Shown here one piece after another: positions 36,702 through 42,905 of a DNA stretch of 64,000 nucleotides. Location: the IMG/VR virus record IMGVR_UViG_3300025861_000004; one strand, 5' to 3'. This DNA comes from a virus. Taxonomy: Duplodnaviria > Heunggongvirae > Uroviricota > Caudoviricetes. Numbering within the stretch: the first letter of the stretch is position 1; the number at the start of each line of letters is the position of its first letter. The position numbers and the translations under genes are program-made. The notes beneath the pieces were generated by a model. The model was given only the letters and a program-made list of their open reading frames with translations. It made no database searches and was not told where the DNA came from.

Positions 36702-37121
36702 ATGAAGCCCCTACAACGCATGTTCCTCATCCTCCCCCTGCTCGTCGCTTGCTCCCAGGACGCGCCGCCTGTCGACGAGGCGGACCTCGCGATGAGCGAG
36801 ACCCCCGACATGGCCTTCTCGCCGGACATGAGCGAGGCCCCCGACCTGGCCCCTTCGCCGGACATGGGCGAGGCCCCCGACCTGAGCGGTCCAACCGCCC
36901 AGACGTTCACCTGGAACGAGGTCAACGGCTGGTACGTCCTGCGGAGCGGCACGCGCGTCTGCGGCCCCTACGCGGTGGACGCAGGCACCCCACCCACCGT
37001 CGACTCGATCCTTCGCCGTTTCTGCACCGAGCAGGGGTTCCCACGCTATACGGTGGGCTGCTCGGTCGACACCCTCCAGTCGGCTTTGCATCAAAAAGGG
37101 CCGGAGTGGGACCAATTCTGA
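36702..37121 (+). CDS. lipoprotein with a PDMxEAPDL repeat
   Basis: MKPLQRMFLILPLLVACSQ has a lipobox. GGAGG Shine-Dalgarno. Confidence 0.5.
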   Translation: MKPLQRMFLILPLLVACSQDAPPVDEADLAMSETPDMAFSPDMSEAPDLAPSPDMGEAPDLSGPTAQTFTWNEVNGWYVLRSGTRVCGPYAVDAGTPPTVDSILRRFCTEQGFPRYTVGCSVDTLQSALHQKGPEWDQF

Positions 37122-37164
37122 TGCAGGAAGAGGCTTTTTGATGCAGGGGGCGTGAGATGGGAGA

Positions 37165-37536
37165 TCAGCGAGAGGAAGAGACCTTGCGCAAGACGCCGCC
37201 CCTCCTCATCAGAGCGACGTAGATCACTCCAAGATTTTCCATGTTGTCAGGATCCTGGTCTTGACGATCCTTCCTCCCCTGGGGATAGGCAGGATCTGGG
37301 ATAGCGGTGAACGTATGAACTTCCCAGCCGCCCCGAGCCTGACTCGACAGGAGCTTTTGCATCTGAACGCGATCTGCCTCGTTCAGCACCATGTACTCGT
37401 AGCTGCGAGCTTCCTCAAAGAGCAGATCCAAACGCTCTCCGATTAAGGCGCTTTCCCGTTTTGTTGGTGGGCCATCCACTCCTTCATCAGCATCGGGAGT
37501 TTGTTTTGGCGCTTTGGGGTTGCGGGGACCCTTCAT
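37165..37536 (-). CDS. hypothetical protein
   Basis: ATG at 37536 with a GAAGGAA Shine-Dalgarno. The ORF track extends it to 37608. Confidence 0.45.
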   Translation of the reverse strand: MKGPRNPKAPKQTPDADEGVDGPPTKRESALIGERLDLLFEEARSYEYMVLNEADRVQMQKLLSSQARGGWEVHTFTAIPDPAYPQGRKDRQDQDPDNMENLGVIYVALMRRGGVLRKVSSSR

Positions 37537-37646
37537 CTGGTATTCCTTCGCCGTCTTGCGGCTTTGCAAATTTCGGCCATCGCTATCACGACACGATGCG
37601 CCACGCAATTAGTTCGAGGGGCAGGACCGTCGGCCCTTTAGAAGAG

Positions 37647-38495
37647 TCAGGGACGTTGCCCATCCGATGAGCCGATCTTGTCGGGGCAGTCGTACACGAA
37701 CTCCCGTGTGACGCTGGTCCTCCCCTGATAGTCCACCACGCTCGTCTCCTTCCGAATCCGCCCCTCCCCGTCGAGAACGATCACTTCGTTCTCATGTGCG
37801 TCATCCCGCATCCCCGAGGCGGAGGTCGTCGAGGCGCGTCGCGTCCAACCCAGGTACAAGCTCTCCGAGGCGTAGGGCCAGACGACAGGCTCCGACGAAA
37901 ACGGCTCCTGTGTTCCCGAGAAGCGCGCCGTCGTCAGGGTCCGCCGTCGCCCGCGCTCCGTGGCGATCCATGCCCGCTCGTGTATAGAGGCGGGTTGTCC
38001 CGACGAATCGATCGTGATGATCGCTTCTCCTTCTGCCACGGGTGCGTCGTCCTTCTCTTTGGTGCGGTAGTAGCGGCTGGGCCTGCCGCTCTCGTAGGCC
38101 ACCCTCATGCGCTCCTTCTCGACAGGCGAGGTCGCCTCGATGAGCCGCCCCAGGTCGTCGTGCTTGTACACGAGGTCCAGATTCTCACCAGGCAGGTAGC
38201 GGCAGGCGCTCAGCGTGCGGCAGTCGTTGGCGACGATCCGATGTGTGGCTTTCTCCAGGATGCCGTCCCGTCGGTAGTAGAGGGTGTAGACGTTCTCGAT
38301 CTTGGGAGACGAGCCATACCGCTCCAGGATCTTGCAGGGCATGTGCGCCGGCCGAGCCAGAGGGCGGCTCGCTTTGGCAGGCGTACTTGCCGAGGGTGAG
38401 AGTATCTGTGCCTCTGCCCAGGTAGGCAAGAACGCGGGGCCCCATAGCAACGCTCCAACCAACAGCTCCACGCGAAACAGCTCGGTCTTCTGCAT
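37647..38495 (-). CDS. secreted hypothetical protein
   Basis: ATG at 38495 with an AGGAGG Shine-Dalgarno 7 nt upstream. MQKTELFRVELLVGALLWGPAFLPTWAEAQ is a signal peptide. Confidence 0.55.
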   Translation of the reverse strand: MQKTELFRVELLVGALLWGPAFLPTWAEAQILSPSASTPAKASRPLARPAHMPCKILERYGSSPKIENVYTLYYRRDGILEKATHRIVANDCRTLSACRYLPGENLDLVYKHDDLGRLIEATSPVEKERMRVAYESGRPSRYYRTKEKDDAPVAEGEAIITIDSSGQPASIHERAWIATERGRRRTLTTARFSGTQEPFSSEPVVWPYASESLYLGWTRRASTTSASGMRDDAHENEVIVLDGEGRIRKETSVVDYQGRTSVTREFVYDCPDKIGSSDGQRP

Positions 38496-38613
38496 GTCGA
38501 ACCTCCTGTGAGTTTCAGAGGCACAACCTCCCGCAAGTATTCGTTTTACGCAACGATGTATCCACATACGACATAGCCAGCGACGTGGAAACCTGGGCAG
38601 GTACACCAAATCC

Positions 38614-40889: not shown

Positions 40890-41093
40890 TCAGCCCCCTC
40901 CGCTATTCCGTCGCGCTTTCTCCAGCGCCACGACCCGCATCCACGTCGACACACCGAGCCCTGCTGCCTCTGCTGCTTGCTCAAGCTCAGCGCGCTCCGT
41001 CTCGGTTGTCAGCACTTTGATGTGGGTCGTCCGGCGCGATTCCTCCGCGATCGGCGGGCGGCCGATCCGAGGTTGTTCCTTGGGTCTAGTCAC
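40890..41093 (-). CDS. MobC-like / ribbon-helix-helix mobilisation protein
   Basis: MTRPKEQPRIGRPPIAEESRRTTHIKVLTTETERAELEQAAEAAGLGVSTWMR resembles a relaxosome accessory protein N-terminus. Confidence 0.45.
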   Translation of the reverse strand: MTRPKEQPRIGRPPIAEESRRTTHIKVLTTETERAELEQAAEAAGLGVSTWMRVVALEKARRNSGGG

Positions 41094-41143
41094 ACACTTA
41101 ATATGTCAATAAAAAACGCCTTGTCAATCTTGACACCTAAGGT

Positions 41144-42487
41144 TTGCATGCGCATATTAAGCACATGCAAACGAACGCCGCTGCGAGTTCTCCCGTCGAG
41201 CACAGCCCGCTCCCGACGACACGCGAGGAGCGCGGGCGAGAGATCGCCCGGCGGGGCGGCATCCGTCAGGTTGGCTCGCGGTACGCGGTCCCGTCGCAGT
41301 CCCCAGGCGCTGCTGTGCCGACCTACATCGTCGATCTCGTCGACGAAGTCTGTACCTGCCCGGACTACGAGCTGCGTCGCGCACGCTGCAAGCATCAAGA
41401 GGCGGTCCTCTTCTGGATCGCGTGGGAGGGCACCGTGAGTGACATCGGCACGGTGGAGCCGCCCGTGAAGCGCAAGACCTACCGCCAGAACTGGCCCGCC
41501 TACAATGCGGCTCAGACGACGGAGAAGGCGCGCATTGAGATGCTGCTGAAGTCGCTGTGCGAGGGGATCGAGGAGCCCGAGCGCAAGCCCGGCCCTGGGC
41601 GCCCGCGAATCGCGCTGCGGGATAGCTTGTTCGTCGTGGTATGGAAGGTCTACTCGACGTTCTCTGGGCGCCGCGCCTCGACGGACATCCGGGCCTCCGC
41701 GGAGCGCGGTCACATCGCCACCGCGGTCCACTTCAGCAGCGTGTTCCGTTGCCTACAGAGCGCAGCAACGACAGAGATCCTCATCCGGCTCATCGAGGAG
41801 AGCGCAGCCCCCCTCGCCGAGATCGAGAATCTCGCCGGCCAGTTCGCGCAAGACAGCACAGGCTTCTCGACAGTGACCTACGATCGCTGGTTCGATCAGA
41901 AGCACGCGAAGCTCATGGCGCGGCACCCCTGGGTGAAGCTGCACCTGATGTGTGGCACCGCGACGCACGTGGTGACCGGCGTGAAGGTCACGCCAGAGGC
42001 CGACTGCCCGCTCCTGCCTGAACTACTCAAGAAGACGGCCCAGCGCTTCCAAGTGCGGGAGGTCAGTGGCGACAAGGCGTACCTGTCGAAGAAGAACCTG
42101 GAGGAGATCGAAGCCGTCGGGGCCGTGCCGTTCATCCCGTTCAAAATCAACAGCGTCGGCATGTCGAGCAAGTCCCCTCACTGGCGTCGCATGTGGGCGC
42201 ACTTCTCGCTCAGGAGCGAGGACTTCCTCGCGCACTACCATCGCCGAAGCAACGCCGAGTCCACCATGTGGATGATCAAGTCGAAGTTCGGTGGTGCCGT
42301 GCGATCGAAGACTCCTACAGCACAGATTAACGAAGTTCTCTGCAAGGTGCTCTGTCACAACCTCGCGTGCATCGTCCACGCGATCACGGAGTTCGGGATT
42401 GAGGTGGACTTCGCCAAGCCAGCGCCGTCGGCCCCGCCCGTGCTCAGGTTGGTTACATCCTGGTCTGAATCGGAGGTCGCGTCGTGA
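41144..42487 (+). CDS. DDE transposase with an N-terminal SWIM-type zinc finger (IS-family transposase)
   Basis: SWIM finger CTCPDYELRRARCKHQEAVLFW. DDE region including GDKAYLSKKNLEEIEAVGAVPFIPFK (DDE_Tnp_1-like). An upstream inverted repeat CTTAATATG...CATATTAAG surrounds a TTGACA-containing promoter. Confidence 0.7.
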   Translation: MHAHIKHMQTNAAASSPVEHSPLPTTREERGREIARRGGIRQVGSRYAVPSQSPGAAVPTYIVDLVDEVCTCPDYELRRARCKHQEAVLFWIAWEGTVSDIGTVEPPVKRKTYRQNWPAYNAAQTTEKARIEMLLKSLCEGIEEPERKPGPGRPRIALRDSLFVVVWKVYSTFSGRRASTDIRASAERGHIATAVHFSSVFRCLQSAATTEILIRLIEESAAPLAEIENLAGQFAQDSTGFSTVTYDRWFDQKHAKLMARHPWVKLHLMCGTATHVVTGVKVTPEADCPLLPELLKKTAQRFQVREVSGDKAYLSKKNLEEIEAVGAVPFIPFKINSVGMSSKSPHWRRMWAHFSLRSEDFLAHYHRRSNAESTMWMIKSKFGGAVRSKTPTAQINEVLCKVLCHNLACIVHAITEFGIEVDFAKPAPSAPPVLRLVTSWSESEVAS

Positions 42488-42840
42488 GCGATCTAGATCA
42501 GAGAGAACAGAACCACGTCCGCGCGGCGATGAACTTCGTGCGCATCCTGGTAGGTGGCTTGAGGCCCGTCGCCAAAGCCCTCCAAGCCGATCACAAAAGC
42601 ATCGTCAAGATCGCGAATGGGAGTCGCTCCGTATCTGCGAGCATGGCGCTCCGAGTCGCGCGGTTGCTCGATGTGCCGATGGAGGATCTTCTAACGGGGC
42701 GGTACCGGCCCGGTGCATGTCCCAAGTGTGGACATAAACCAGGCTACATGCCCGTCTGCGTGTCCGACTTCACCGATGAGTCCACTATCGTTGAGGATGC
42801 TCCGCGTTTTGCGGGCGATGCCCTCAAGCTGGTCAGGTAG
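42484..42840 (+). CDS. XRE-family HTH regulator with a C-terminal Cys motif
   Basis: GTG start overlapping the transposase stop. The C-terminus has GACPKCGHKPGYMPVC. Confidence 0.5.
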   Translation: MSDLDQREQNHVRAAMNFVRILVGGLRPVAKALQADHKSIVKIANGSRSVSASMALRVARLLDVPMEDLLTGRYRPGACPKCGHKPGYMPVCVSDFTDESTIVEDAPRFAGDALKLVR

Positions 42841-42849
42841 AAGCCATTC

Positions 42850-42905
42850 CTATTTTGATGCAACCGGGGGATTTTTGATGCAAGCAGCGTTTTTGATGCA
42901 AAGCC
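42850..42905 (+). repeat. Three direct TTTTTGATGCAA repeats at about 20-bp spacing (iteron-like)
   Basis: cctatTTTGATGCAAccgggggatTTTTGATGCAAgcagcgTTTTTGATGCAAag. Related copies lie at 37085-37147, one of them inverted. Confidence 0.8.

Follow-up and report, generated by a model that had tools for sequence, protein, structure and literature searches.

We found that positions 37082-42905 of the window (the whole 64,000-nucleotide stretch of viral DNA that was analysed) are a unit transposon of 5,824 bp inserted in a high-GC host replicon. It belongs to a widespread family of transposons with ends of unusual structure. Taken as a whole, a unit transposon that carries cargo and moves by the mechanism proposed below is very probably the best explanation of this region.

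The insertion is evident from its boundaries and from an allele that lacks it. An earlier note, made from the sequence of the window alone, had proposed an insertion with transposon ends at 37085 and 42905, and had suggested looking for a target-site duplication and for genomes without the insert. Both were found. The termini are inverted repeats of 16 nt, 100% complementary, with arms 5,792 nt apart, and both are directly flanked by the 10-bp duplication CCCTCCAGTC (Table 1). The right edge was as proposed; with bounds of 37082 and 42905, the left edge lies 3 bp further outward. In contig L010 (JGI 3300009690) the element is absent, the flanks are 100% identical, and one copy of the 10-mer connects position 37081 with 42906. 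The interrupted gene encodes a small putative lipoprotein (lipobox read by eye). Its intact allele ends ...DTLQSVTCFN*, and the insertion is five codons ahead of that stop; in the window, the final 13 codons and the stop (37082-37121) are element sequence.

A second insertion of this element, oppositely oriented and with its own 10-bp duplication, was found at a distance of 372 bp. It is present in L003 and L005, which are independent ENA assemblies, and its junctions read ...TGCAAAGCC|CCTACAACGC|ATGTTCC and ...TGCAAAGCC|GCGTTGTAGG|GGCTTCAT. In addition, L004, L005 and L006 have contig ends exactly at the element tips. Three allelic states (empty, site 1 and site 2) occur among sequences with two or fewer SNPs per 15-20 kb, and the junctions are concordant across JGI, ENA and Logan assemblies.

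Table 1. Positions of the transposon's features and of its target sites in the 64-kb window.
Feature	Position	Strand	Basis or remark
Target gene, small putative lipoprotein (MKPLQRMFLILPLLVAC...)	36702..37121	+	translation with and without element; empty-site contig L010
Second target site CCTACAACGC	36710..36719	.	duplicated on both sides of oppositely oriented element copy (L003, L005)
Target-site duplication CCCTCCAGTC, left copy, 10 bp	37072..37081	.	directly outside left tip
Left terminal inverted repeat GGCTTTGCATCAAAAA	37082..37097	+	inverted-repeat pair; contains terminal site of B-type end
Two subterminal sites TTCTGATGCA, TTTTGATGCA	37116..37145	-	about +34/+54 (+35/+55) from left tip; inverted relative to terminal site
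Cargo gene, 123 aa (up to 147 aa from upstream TTG)	37165..37536	-	weak DUF4177 similarity
Cargo gene, 282 aa	37647..38495	-	N-terminal signal-peptide-like segment; AGGAGG ribosome-binding site
Cargo XRE-type HTH regulator, 120 aa	38614..38976	+	HTH_3, E = 9e-15
Cargo ORFan, 125 aa	38933..39310	-	divergent from XRE gene at 39440
Cargo XRE-type HTH regulator, 96 aa	39440..39730	+	HTH_31, E = 6.5e-12
Cargo gene, 185 aa (115 aa from 40099)	39889..40446	+	absent from closest relative L011
Conserved non-coding stretch	40447..40889	.	91% identity to L011; indels not multiples of three
NikA-like ribbon-helix-helix (RHH) protein, 67 aa	40890..41093	-	PF21983, 37 bits vs cut-off 27; divergent from transposase
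Back-to-back divergent promoters TTGACA/CATATT, one per strand	41097..41161	.	sigma-70-like pattern matches
Transposase, 440 aa	41165..42487	+	SWIM and DDE_Tnp_1 domain matches, alignment
HTH protein, 118 aa	42484..42840	+	GTG start overlaps transposase stop (GTGA)
Two subterminal sites, A-type end	42853..42882	-	+24 and +44 from right tip; same orientation as terminal site
Right terminal inverted repeat, TTTTTGATGCAAAGCC on + strand	42890..42905	-	inverted-repeat pair
Target-site duplication CCCTCCAGTC, right copy, 10 bp	42906..42915	.	directly outside right tip

As judged by GC content, third-position GC, a missing host promoter motif and the context of its closest relative, the element is foreign to its host. 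Its GC content is 61.0%, compared to 66.4% elsewhere in the window and 66.6-67.5% in the 10-kb flanks. The drop that had been noticed is real but smaller than the 52-58% given for it, with values of 54.7-57% confined to the lowest 300-bp windows. Third-codon-position GC is 0.67-0.83 within the element and mostly 0.83-0.95 outside, and the host motif (TCAGCTCC...TCGAC...ATG) is indeed absent at the starts of the element's genes. In L011, the closest relative, the ends are the same and the transposase is 97% identical; this copy lies on a chromosome-like Myxococcales contig that has nothing else in common with this window. The host replicon is probably a huge-phage genome, based on PHROG matches, a tmRNA, a tRNA and contig size.

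The 440-aa protein encoded near the right end has the SWIM and DDE_Tnp_1 domains that the earlier note recognized, although the ATG at 41165 is a more likely start than the TTG at 41144. The N-terminal SWIM zinc finger is C63xC65...C75xH77, and the catalytic domain contains D230, D303 and E365, with Y358-R361-E365-K372. The DDE, YREK and SWIM residues are invariant throughout the transposase alignment, and the gene is intact here with every catalytic residue present. By alignment, the catalytic core is distantly IS903-like (24% identity to the IS903B transposase over 176 aa that include every catalytic motif, E = 3e-12). The predicted structure is of poor quality (mean pLDDT 58).

The layout of the TTTTTGATGCA repeats had been described correctly: one inverted and two direct copies at the left edge, and at the right three direct copies with spacings of 20 and 18 bp. 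Allowing two or fewer mismatches, TTTTTGATGCARG occurs six times in the 64-kb window (0.38 expected), with all six copies within 37085-37147 and 42852-42902. The core TTGATGCA occurs five times, only at the two element edges. Sites at one type of end (A-type) are at +6, +24 and +44, all direct; at the other (B-type), a direct site at +6 is followed by inverted sites at about +34/+54. Of 41 related elements, 23 had this asymmetric three-site layout at both ends (shuffles gave 0.0), and in none were A-type and B-type sites combined on a single end. Relative to the two end types, the transposase does not keep one orientation across the family. From this arrangement we take the repeats to be the terminal and subterminal sites of conserved asymmetric ends, not iterons. 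The earlier suggestion of replication-initiator or simple regulator sites was rejected because the same layout recurs in these related transposons.

The transposase has over 3,600 homologues; a count of clusters at 50% identity with E <= 1e-30 gave 790. Termini of the GGCTTTGC type were identified in 37 distinct elements from contigs of bacterial genomes, in 7 from viral contigs, and in all 41 elements analysed for end layout. These elements range from 2.5 to about 11 kb, and nearly all of their target-site duplications are 9-10 bp, mostly 9 bp as opposed to 10 bp here. The three-site layout is found in elements from Myxococcota, Acidobacteriota, Chloroflexota and viral contigs, and in other phyla it flanks unrelated cargo. 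Cultured phages and plasmids apparently lack such elements. A search of the literature for a transposon family combining SWIM and DDE_Tnp_1 found no description.

Two small genes accompany the transposase. The RHH fold of the upstream protein had been predicted; however, the protein is NikA-like and part of the transposition module, rather than a MobC-like independent regulator. It is a conserved neighbour of the transposase in a Myxococcota clade, and a small Zn-ribbon protein holds the same position elsewhere. The downstream 118-aa gene is conserved in many elements, mainly in Myxococcota, and is missing from some clades. Three XRE regulators had been proposed. The HTH domains of those at 38614 and 39440 were confirmed; the protein at 42484 has a weaker HTH_3 match (E = 7e-4, below the Pfam cut-off) and belongs to the transposition module. 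The TTGACA promoter reported inside the CTTAATATG/CATATTAAG inverted repeat is present and lies back to back with a second one; the region has no other sigma-70-like matches. The two promoters end 7 nt ahead of the RHH GTG and 7 nt ahead of the transposase ATG. The framing repeat covaries in six relatives: the repeat is kept and its sequence changed. Of the strong AGGAGG-type ribosome-binding sites ascribed to this region, we found AGGAGG or GGAGG at the 282-aa, 125-aa and 118-aa genes, whereas the RHH and transposase genes look leaderless.

The six remaining genes are cargo: two XRE regulators, a secreted protein and three ORFans. No family match was found for the 282-aa protein, and the 125-aa ORFan had only 7 homologues among 5.8 billion proteins. 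For the non-coding stretch at 40447-40889, extensive structure is predicted on both strands; it contains a 27-aa ORF (40715-40798) with a GAGGAGG ribosome-binding site.

These features suggest how the element may move. The SWIM + DDE transposase would cut at the GGC tips and join them to staggered target nicks 9-10 bp apart. The TGCATCAAAA(A) repeats are candidate transposase binding sites, and one terminal and two subterminal sites per end could assemble a multi-subunit transpososome. The left and right ends are built differently, so such a complex could tell them apart. The likeliest reader of the sites is the N-terminal SWIM region: when clades are compared for what they have and lack, no other DNA-binding part is common to all those with this end layout. 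Through the covarying framing repeat, the RHH protein probably acts as a repressor of both leaderless promoters, that of its own gene and that of the transposase gene. Translation of the 118-aa protein is probably coupled to that of the transposase, and the protein may be an accessory or regulatory factor.

Could the block instead be native to the phage? Three HTH proteins and an RHH protein, repeats phased about 20 bp apart, and a divergent 125-aa/XRE pair resembling a repressor switch might indicate a regulatory, immunity or lysogeny module, with the repeats as operators of the XRE repressors. We consider this very unlikely. The empty-site allele has identical flanks and there is a target-site duplication, both repeat clusters sit between convergent gene ends and away from promoters, and the same end layout surrounds unrelated cargo in other phyla. 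Lysogeny, which the earlier note had raised, was rejected because domain searches of the block found no integrase (or excisionase) and the block recurs as a unit in unrelated genomes. There is hardly any probability of a plasmid-like hitch-hiker whose replication or partition module uses the repeats as iterons or centromere-like sites. The repeats are short, direct and helically spaced, and the RHH protein resembles the plasmid accessory proteins NikA, MobA and TraJ; however, they form mutually inverted termini with a target-site duplication outside, the element has no Rep, ParA/ParB or relaxase gene, and in other clades a Zn-ribbon replaces the RHH protein while the end layout stays.

In some contigs the right tip is followed by the left flank in inverted orientation, and an invertible segment of the Mu G or P1 C kind, turned over by site-specific recombination, would explain the L003 and L005 junctions. 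But those junctions carry their own 10-bp duplication (36710-36719) and no shared crossover site, the block contains no serine or tyrosine recombinase, and an empty site exists, making inversion extremely improbable. An immobile relic, in which a single past insertion left an inactive or domesticated transposase and the assemblies differ by recombination or mis-assembly, is also very improbable. Each window has one copy, and one JGI assembly has a nonsense SNP in the 282-aa cargo gene (37841 G>A). Against a relic are the three allelic states in nearly identical sequences, the junctions shared by three sets of assemblies, the intact transposase and the perfect ends.

The nearest known counterparts of this mobile unit transposon are in the IS903 group of the IS5 family (for example IS903B, ISSod12 and ISVpa3). 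The catalytic core is homologous, including DSTG, D-x-AY and Y-x2-R-x3-E. IS903 has GGCTTTGTTGAATAAATC ends and makes 9-bp repeats (PMC10569121, PMC8477213). Like IS903, the element has tips starting GGCTTTG, and most family members make 9-bp duplications, unlike the 10 bp of this element. IS903 is a single-gene element of about 1 kb bounded by simple 18-bp inverted repeats. In contrast, the element here is 5.8 kb with cargo, a transposase with a roughly 150-aa N-terminal extension bearing the SWIM zinc finger, conserved partners (an RHH or Zn-ribbon gene upstream and an HTH gene downstream), and three sites per end in a fixed asymmetric layout.

PIF/Harbinger elements are eukaryotic IS5-related DDE transposons in which the transposase and a second DNA-binding protein are both required for movement (PMC2836001, PMC2213677). 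They resemble the element in combining an IS5-like transposase with separate small DNA-binding proteins and repeats inside the ends, and differ from it in their 3-bp duplications and Myb/SANT or MADF partner. This likeness is a functional analogy only, not membership. In Tn7, phage Mu and Tn402/Tn5053, several phased sites per end, which differ in number or orientation between left and right, organise a multi-subunit transpososome. The element shares with them multiple phased sites per end, different left and right ends and an equally fixed layout. However, they use a retroviral-integrase-type (rve) transposase with an AAA+ regulator and make 5-bp duplications, whereas the transposase here is of the IS4/IS5 (DDE_Tnp_1) type, and domain searches of the element's proteins found no rve or ATPase gene. 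As in transporter IS (tIS) and unit transposons, one transposase module and passenger genes lie within one inverted-repeat pair; known tIS belong to other families, including IS1595, IS66 and ISNCY. The architecture of the element is new among IS5/IS903-type transposons, with IS5 being the best NCBIfam match of its transposase at a score below the cut-off (104.6 bits vs 140).

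The 5,824-bp block at 37082-42905 (the element) is a cargo transposon. An earlier note, made by a model from the sequence alone, had read the block as an insertion or a lysogeny or hitch-hiking module, with edge repeats resembling transposon ends or regulator or initiator sites. Its insertion/transposon reading is borne out by exact inverted-repeat ends, a 10-bp target duplication and a contig with the empty site. The 10-mer CCCTCCAGTC lies beside both tips, where the note had proposed looking for target-site duplications. The empty-site allele, which it had also proposed seeking, emerged when public assemblies were queried with the 304-aa protein of the right flank. 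A 30-mer of the lipoprotein gene gave no match in the JGI metagenome collection, from which these samples are evidently absent. In this contig (L010, JGI 3300009690), the right flank runs into the left flank via one copy of the 10-mer, and the flanks are 100% identical to the window on both sides of it. The element is inserted in a small lipoprotein-like gene, five codons upstream of its stop codon. Without the element, the protein has the C-terminus ...DTLQSVTCFN, and the interrupted version ends in ...DTLQSALHQKGPEWDQF, which is encoded by the left end of the element.

We found a second insertion of the element. Two contigs (L003 and L005) from other ENA assemblies in the same series contain two further junction types. 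One joins the right tip to the reverse complement of the sequence that runs leftwards from 36719, and the other joins the left tip to the sequence that runs rightwards from 36710. Therefore, CCTACAACGC (36710-36719), which flanks an oppositely oriented copy of the element on both sides, was duplicated around that copy. L003 had initially been read as an invertible segment. We dropped this reading when the base-by-base junctions showed the second 10-bp duplication, and a segment of the Gin/Cin/Hin type is further disfavored because the element encodes no recombinase. The four junction types fit one genome holding two inverted copies around the 372-bp gene; such copies, if present, would have arisen through either a second insertion or intramolecular replicative transposition. 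The junctions fit a mixture of single-copy genomes equally well. The element may have moved replicatively within one genome, an event that would leave an inverted copy on either side of the 372-bp gene. Other contigs stop precisely at a tip, L004 at 37082 and both L005 and L006 at about 42905, as is usual for assemblers at a repeat that has several contexts. All versions of the locus differ by at most 2 SNPs per 15-20 kb between assemblies, indicating that the insertion events are recent. The empty site and the two insertion sites coexist, and the flanks compared are 99.99-100% identical.

The repeats that the earlier note described at the edges of the block are real and specific. Allowing up to 2 mismatches, TTTTTGATGCARG occurs 6 times in the 64-kb window (0.38 expected), always within 37085-37147 or 42852-42902. 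The 8-mer TTGATGCA has 5 copies in the window, confined to the two edge clusters. The outermost copies of the repeat are part of a perfect 16-bp inverted repeat. Using tip positions 6-15 as a motif, we scanned the first 80-160 bp of each end of the related elements and found two types of end. In one, three copies of the motif point the same way, at +6, +24 and +44. In the other, the copy at +6 is direct and that at +34 (usually also one at +54) is inverted; in several elements the third site of this end is direct (+55) instead. The strict asymmetric pattern was present in 23 of 41 elements, compared to 0.0 in shuffled controls, and none of the 41 had both site types on a single end. The window element has its all-direct end on the right and its inverted-type end on the left. 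The motif varies by lineage (TGCATCAAAA, TGCCTCAAAA, TGCCCAATGA, TGCACATAAA and others) and the site positions are constant, so the sites behave like protein-binding sites that co-evolve with their binder. Family members differ in how the transposase gene is oriented with respect to the two types of end. The all-direct end is upstream of the transposase in most elements and downstream in the window element, its closest relative (L011) and three others (L071, L081, L093). A search for the end pattern in IMG/VR gave no match, and the sole Rfam match in the element was to a miRNA, attributed to chance, at the hairpin of the left end.

Coordinates of features in the window
Feature	Position	Remarks
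Target-site duplication, 10-mer CCCTCCAGTC	37072-37081 and 42906-42915	abuts both tips on the outside
Terminal inverted repeat, perfect 16 bp, GGCTTTGCATCAAAAA	37082-37097; complement 42890-42905	pair I9
Non-coding stretch, 440 bp	40447-40889	91% identical to L011, with frame-breaking indels
tmRNA, full-length	56024-56383	Rfam 162 bits; tag peptide ANDNSVRLAA
tRNA-Ile, unusual anticodon AAT	7896-7971	

Clusters of repeats might instead mark an iteron origin, as the earlier note had considered, or a partition site. However, the two clusters are at the exact termini, are mutually inverted, and have the target duplication outside them. In addition, protein profile searches found no gene for a Rep initiator, ParA or ParB in the element. 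Judged by sequence, the edge repeats are transposon-end sites, with protein binding predicted, and not iterons, because the fixed layout recurs across related elements. The ribbon-helix-helix (RHH) protein raised the possibility of a mobilisable element with MobC/NikA, a relaxase and an oriT. Its profile matches are NikA-like, with MobA and TraJ far below the cut-off; the element has no relaxase, and a Zn-ribbon protein substitutes for the RHH protein in other clades. The suggestion that the block is a lysogeny module was not supported.

The gene content agrees with that in the earlier note: two clear XRE-type HTH proteins, a weaker HTH protein at 42484, the NikA-like RHH protein, and a transposase with SWIM and DDE_Tnp_1 domains (Pfam E = 1.9e-14 for the latter). 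Across 18 aligned homologues, there is no variation in the SWIM signature C63-x-C65...C75-x-H77, in D230, D303 and E365, or in Y358, R361 and K372. A DDE triad is thus present, together with the Y-(2)-R-(3)-E-(6)-K signature expected of the IS903 group of the IS5 family. Its catalytic part is 24% identical to the IS903B transposase over 176 aa (E = 3e-12), a stretch that spans all catalytic motifs. The best NCBIfam match was NF033579 (IS5 family transposase), which scored below its cut-off (104.6 bits; cut-off 140) and covered residues 154-400 only. An AlphaFold model from the 18-sequence alignment (mean pLDDT 58) was too poor for a fold search. PDB sequence searches gave no match for the transposase or the 118-aa HTH protein.

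The transposase is accompanied by small genes for predicted DNA-binding proteins. All-versus-all ORF clustering was spoiled by spurious overlapping high-GC ORFs, and only the clusters of small genes upstream of the transposase were usable. The small gene divergent from the transposase encodes the NikA-like RHH protein in the Myxococcota clade, and the same position in other clades encodes a Zn-ribbon protein (CxxC...CPxCKSPYW). The 118-aa HTH gene has a GTG start that overlaps the transposase stop. It is kept in about 24 loci and is missing where the transposase ends 45-72 bp from the tip. The end layout is retained in clades without the HTH and RHH proteins, which would make the transposase the sole constant candidate for reading the sites. 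The region between the RHH and transposase genes contains the sole two sigma-70-like promoter matches in 6.2 kb. They are arranged back to back, with the end of each -10 box 7 nt upstream of the start codon, so both messages are probably leaderless. An inverted repeat frames the promoter pair, with constant position and changed sequence in six relatives. These features fit a putative operator, most simply one for the RHH protein.

We found that the element belongs to a large family. There are more than 3,600 transposase homologues. A search of 1.84 billion representative proteins gave 790 clusters at 50% identity (E <= 1e-30). A scan of one genome per species gave 79 loci, mostly in Myxococcota (Kofleriaceae, Polyangia), Acidobacteriota (Pyrinomonadaceae) and Dehalococcoidia, with a few on contigs binned as DPANN archaea; IMG/VR gave 11 more. 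Among the genome loci, 37 distinct elements had paired GGCTTTGC termini around the transposase with direct duplications, nearly all of 9 or 10 bp. Such pairs were also found in 7 of the 10 viral loci tested (all 9 bp) and in one further metagenome contig of 47% GC. Altogether, about 45 relatives have GGCTTTGC tips. Family members range from 2,483 bp, a size that still includes an extra small gene, to about 11 kb. One 21-kb contig (JACQII010000010.1) carries two different family members (L012 and L022). It is binned as Aenigmatarchaeota yet has 63% GC, so the binning is probably wrong. Cultured phages and 72,556 plasmids contained no full-length relative of the transposase and gave only catalytic-core matches, in which IS5-family genes align to residues about 226-399 at 24-32% identity. 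In the searchable literature, we found no prokaryotic element described with SWIM and DDE_Tnp_1 and no GGCTTTGCC ends. Likewise, we found no described counterpart among IS4/IS5-type transposases with SWIM plus DDE, partner genes and three-site asymmetric ends.

The closest relative, L011, is in a Myxococcales chromosome-like contig. It has a transposase 97% identical to that of the window element, the same ends, a length of 9,791 bp and the duplication CGCCATTTGG. Its flanks encode UvrD, methyltransferase and CarboxypepD_reg proteins and have nothing in common with the window. Such a close relative between unrelated flanks indicates that the block moves as a unit between replicons. L011 contains part of the cargo of the window element, and has DUF4238 and weak AbiGi-like genes in place of other genes, indicating that cargo is exchangeable.

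The cargo proteins (123 aa, 282 aa and secreted, 125 aa, 185 aa, and two XRE) gave no match in Pfam, PHROG, NCBIfam, PADLOC and PDB apart from generic HTH domains, the only matches of the two XRE proteins. PADLOC found no defence system in the element, and PDB sequence searches gave no match for the 125-aa or the 185-aa protein. The 125-aa protein has seven close relatives only, too few for structure prediction. The 440-bp non-coding stretch is conserved, and strong structure is predicted for both of its strands (folding z-scores -3.7 and -4.3). Within it is an arginine-rich 27-aa ORF (40715-40798) preceded by a GAGGAGG ribosome-binding site. The region between the 125-aa gene and the divergent 96-aa XRE gene (39311-39439) has two direct copies of GTGAAACTNA..GACAC, which may be an operator for a cargo repressor. 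Two of the four positions with SNPs between assemblies are in cargo genes. G>A at 37841 truncates the 282-aa gene (JGI 3300025784) and G>A at 40160 is within the 185-aa gene (JGI 3300009687). These SNPs hint at relaxed selection on the cargo, with tiny numbers.

The block is distinct from its surroundings in composition, as had been claimed, with a smaller drop than the 52-58% GC given in the earlier note. The block has 61.0% GC compared to 66.4% for the rest of the window, and 55-57% is reached only in the lowest 300-bp windows. Third-position GC is 0.67-0.83 for block genes and mostly 0.83-0.95 outside. The earlier note was correct that block genes do not have the upstream motif of the host replicon. 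The motif, TCAGCTCC(GA)-N~15-(A)TCGAC-N~10-ATG, precedes about 45 genes elsewhere in the window (e.g., at 27501, 33003, 49493 and 61661) and 0 genes of the block; [TA]CAGCTC[CG] has 51 matches in the window. Genes with the motif usually have no Shine-Dalgarno sequence, which suggests a phage-specific promoter that would produce leaderless messages.

The host replicon is most likely a huge phage of a Myxococcota host, judging from its gene content, the tmRNA and tRNA in the window, and contig sizes. Among the PHROG matches of the window are a protease (2.6e-49), proteins for head closure, major head and portal, and an endolysin. There are auxiliary genes for NAPRTase, RNase H, RNA ligase, NUDIX, PTH2 and AlkB-like proteins, and many ORFs have no family match. 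Identical sequence is present on contigs of 238 and 273 kb. A search of IMG/VR found no relatives of the flanking phage genes, and megablast of 20 kb against cultured phages gave no match. A second GC dip (53-57%, 14001-16000) coincides with the 3' half of a 1,102-aa helicase-like gene (12590-15898), the C-terminal part of which has many short, repetitive PHROG/Pfam matches. Pfam matches outside the element include a TnsA-like endonuclease N-terminal domain, HTH_Tnp_1, GmrSD_N, PTH2, AlkB-like 2OG-Fe(II) oxygenase, HD_4 and DnaJ. The window may contain further mobile-element remnants outside the element.

Our tentative proposal, which we rate a little short of probable, is that the element is a working member of an uncatalogued family of prokaryotic transposons, caught moving in a natural population of a probable-phage genome of at least 273 kb. 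The family would be defined by SWIM plus an IS903-like DDE core, two or three small DNA-binding partners and fixed asymmetric three-site ends, and its cargo would vary across at least four phyla. The family indicates that a transposase of the IS5/IS903 type can occur together with both multi-site asymmetric ends and separate DNA-binding partners, features otherwise familiar from Tn7/Mu and PIF/Harbinger. Members are annotated merely as "transposase" in genomes. With at least 790 clusters, many cargo islands in Myxococcota, Acidobacteriota and Chloroflexota have therefore probably gone unrecognised. Since the ends are about 60 bp and the cargo is up to about 11 kb, the system is easily tested and possibly a useful tool. 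The view in PMC3429520 is that phages cope badly with insertion sequences and seldom make good vehicles for them. In the present case, natural variants of a probable huge phage differ in whether and where they have a 5.8-kb cargo transposon. With the nearest relative of the transposon in a Myxococcales chromosome-like contig, this provides a concrete case of host-phage transposon traffic and a hint about the host.

By sequence, the element is IS903-like in its predicted chemistry and in its tips. IS903 has ends GGCTTTGTTGAATAAATC and 9-bp repeats (PMC10569121, PMC8477213), and the element tips GGCTTTGCATCAAAAA likewise begin GGC. Target duplications are 10 bp at both insertions of the element and in six genome-contig relatives, and 9 bp in most relatives. 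In contrast to IS903-group insertion sequences, which are about 1 kb with one transposase gene and no passengers, the element has nine genes in 5,824 bp. It fails as a simple IS903-group IS on four counts, which concern how large it is and how many genes it has, the architecture and score of its transposase, and the three-site asymmetric ends.

Tn7/Mu/Tn402-like elements have multiple phased transposase-binding sites, the arrangement of which differs between the ends, and use an rve-type (retroviral-integrase-like) transposase with an AAA+ ATPase partner. The predicted sites of the element (+6/+24/+44 versus +6/+34/+54) make its ends similarly multi-site and asymmetric. However, its transposase is of a different type, and no rve or ATPase domain was found among the element proteins. 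PIF/Harbinger elements combine an IS5-related transposase with a separate, required DNA-binding protein (PMC2836001). By analogy, the IS5-like transposase here is accompanied by conserved separate genes for predicted DNA-binding partners, although the partner proteins differ and the duplications are 9-10 bp rather than 3 bp (PMC2213677). The nearest functional parallels would thus be eukaryotic PIF/Harbinger for two-protein transposition and Tn7/Mu for multi-site asymmetric ends.
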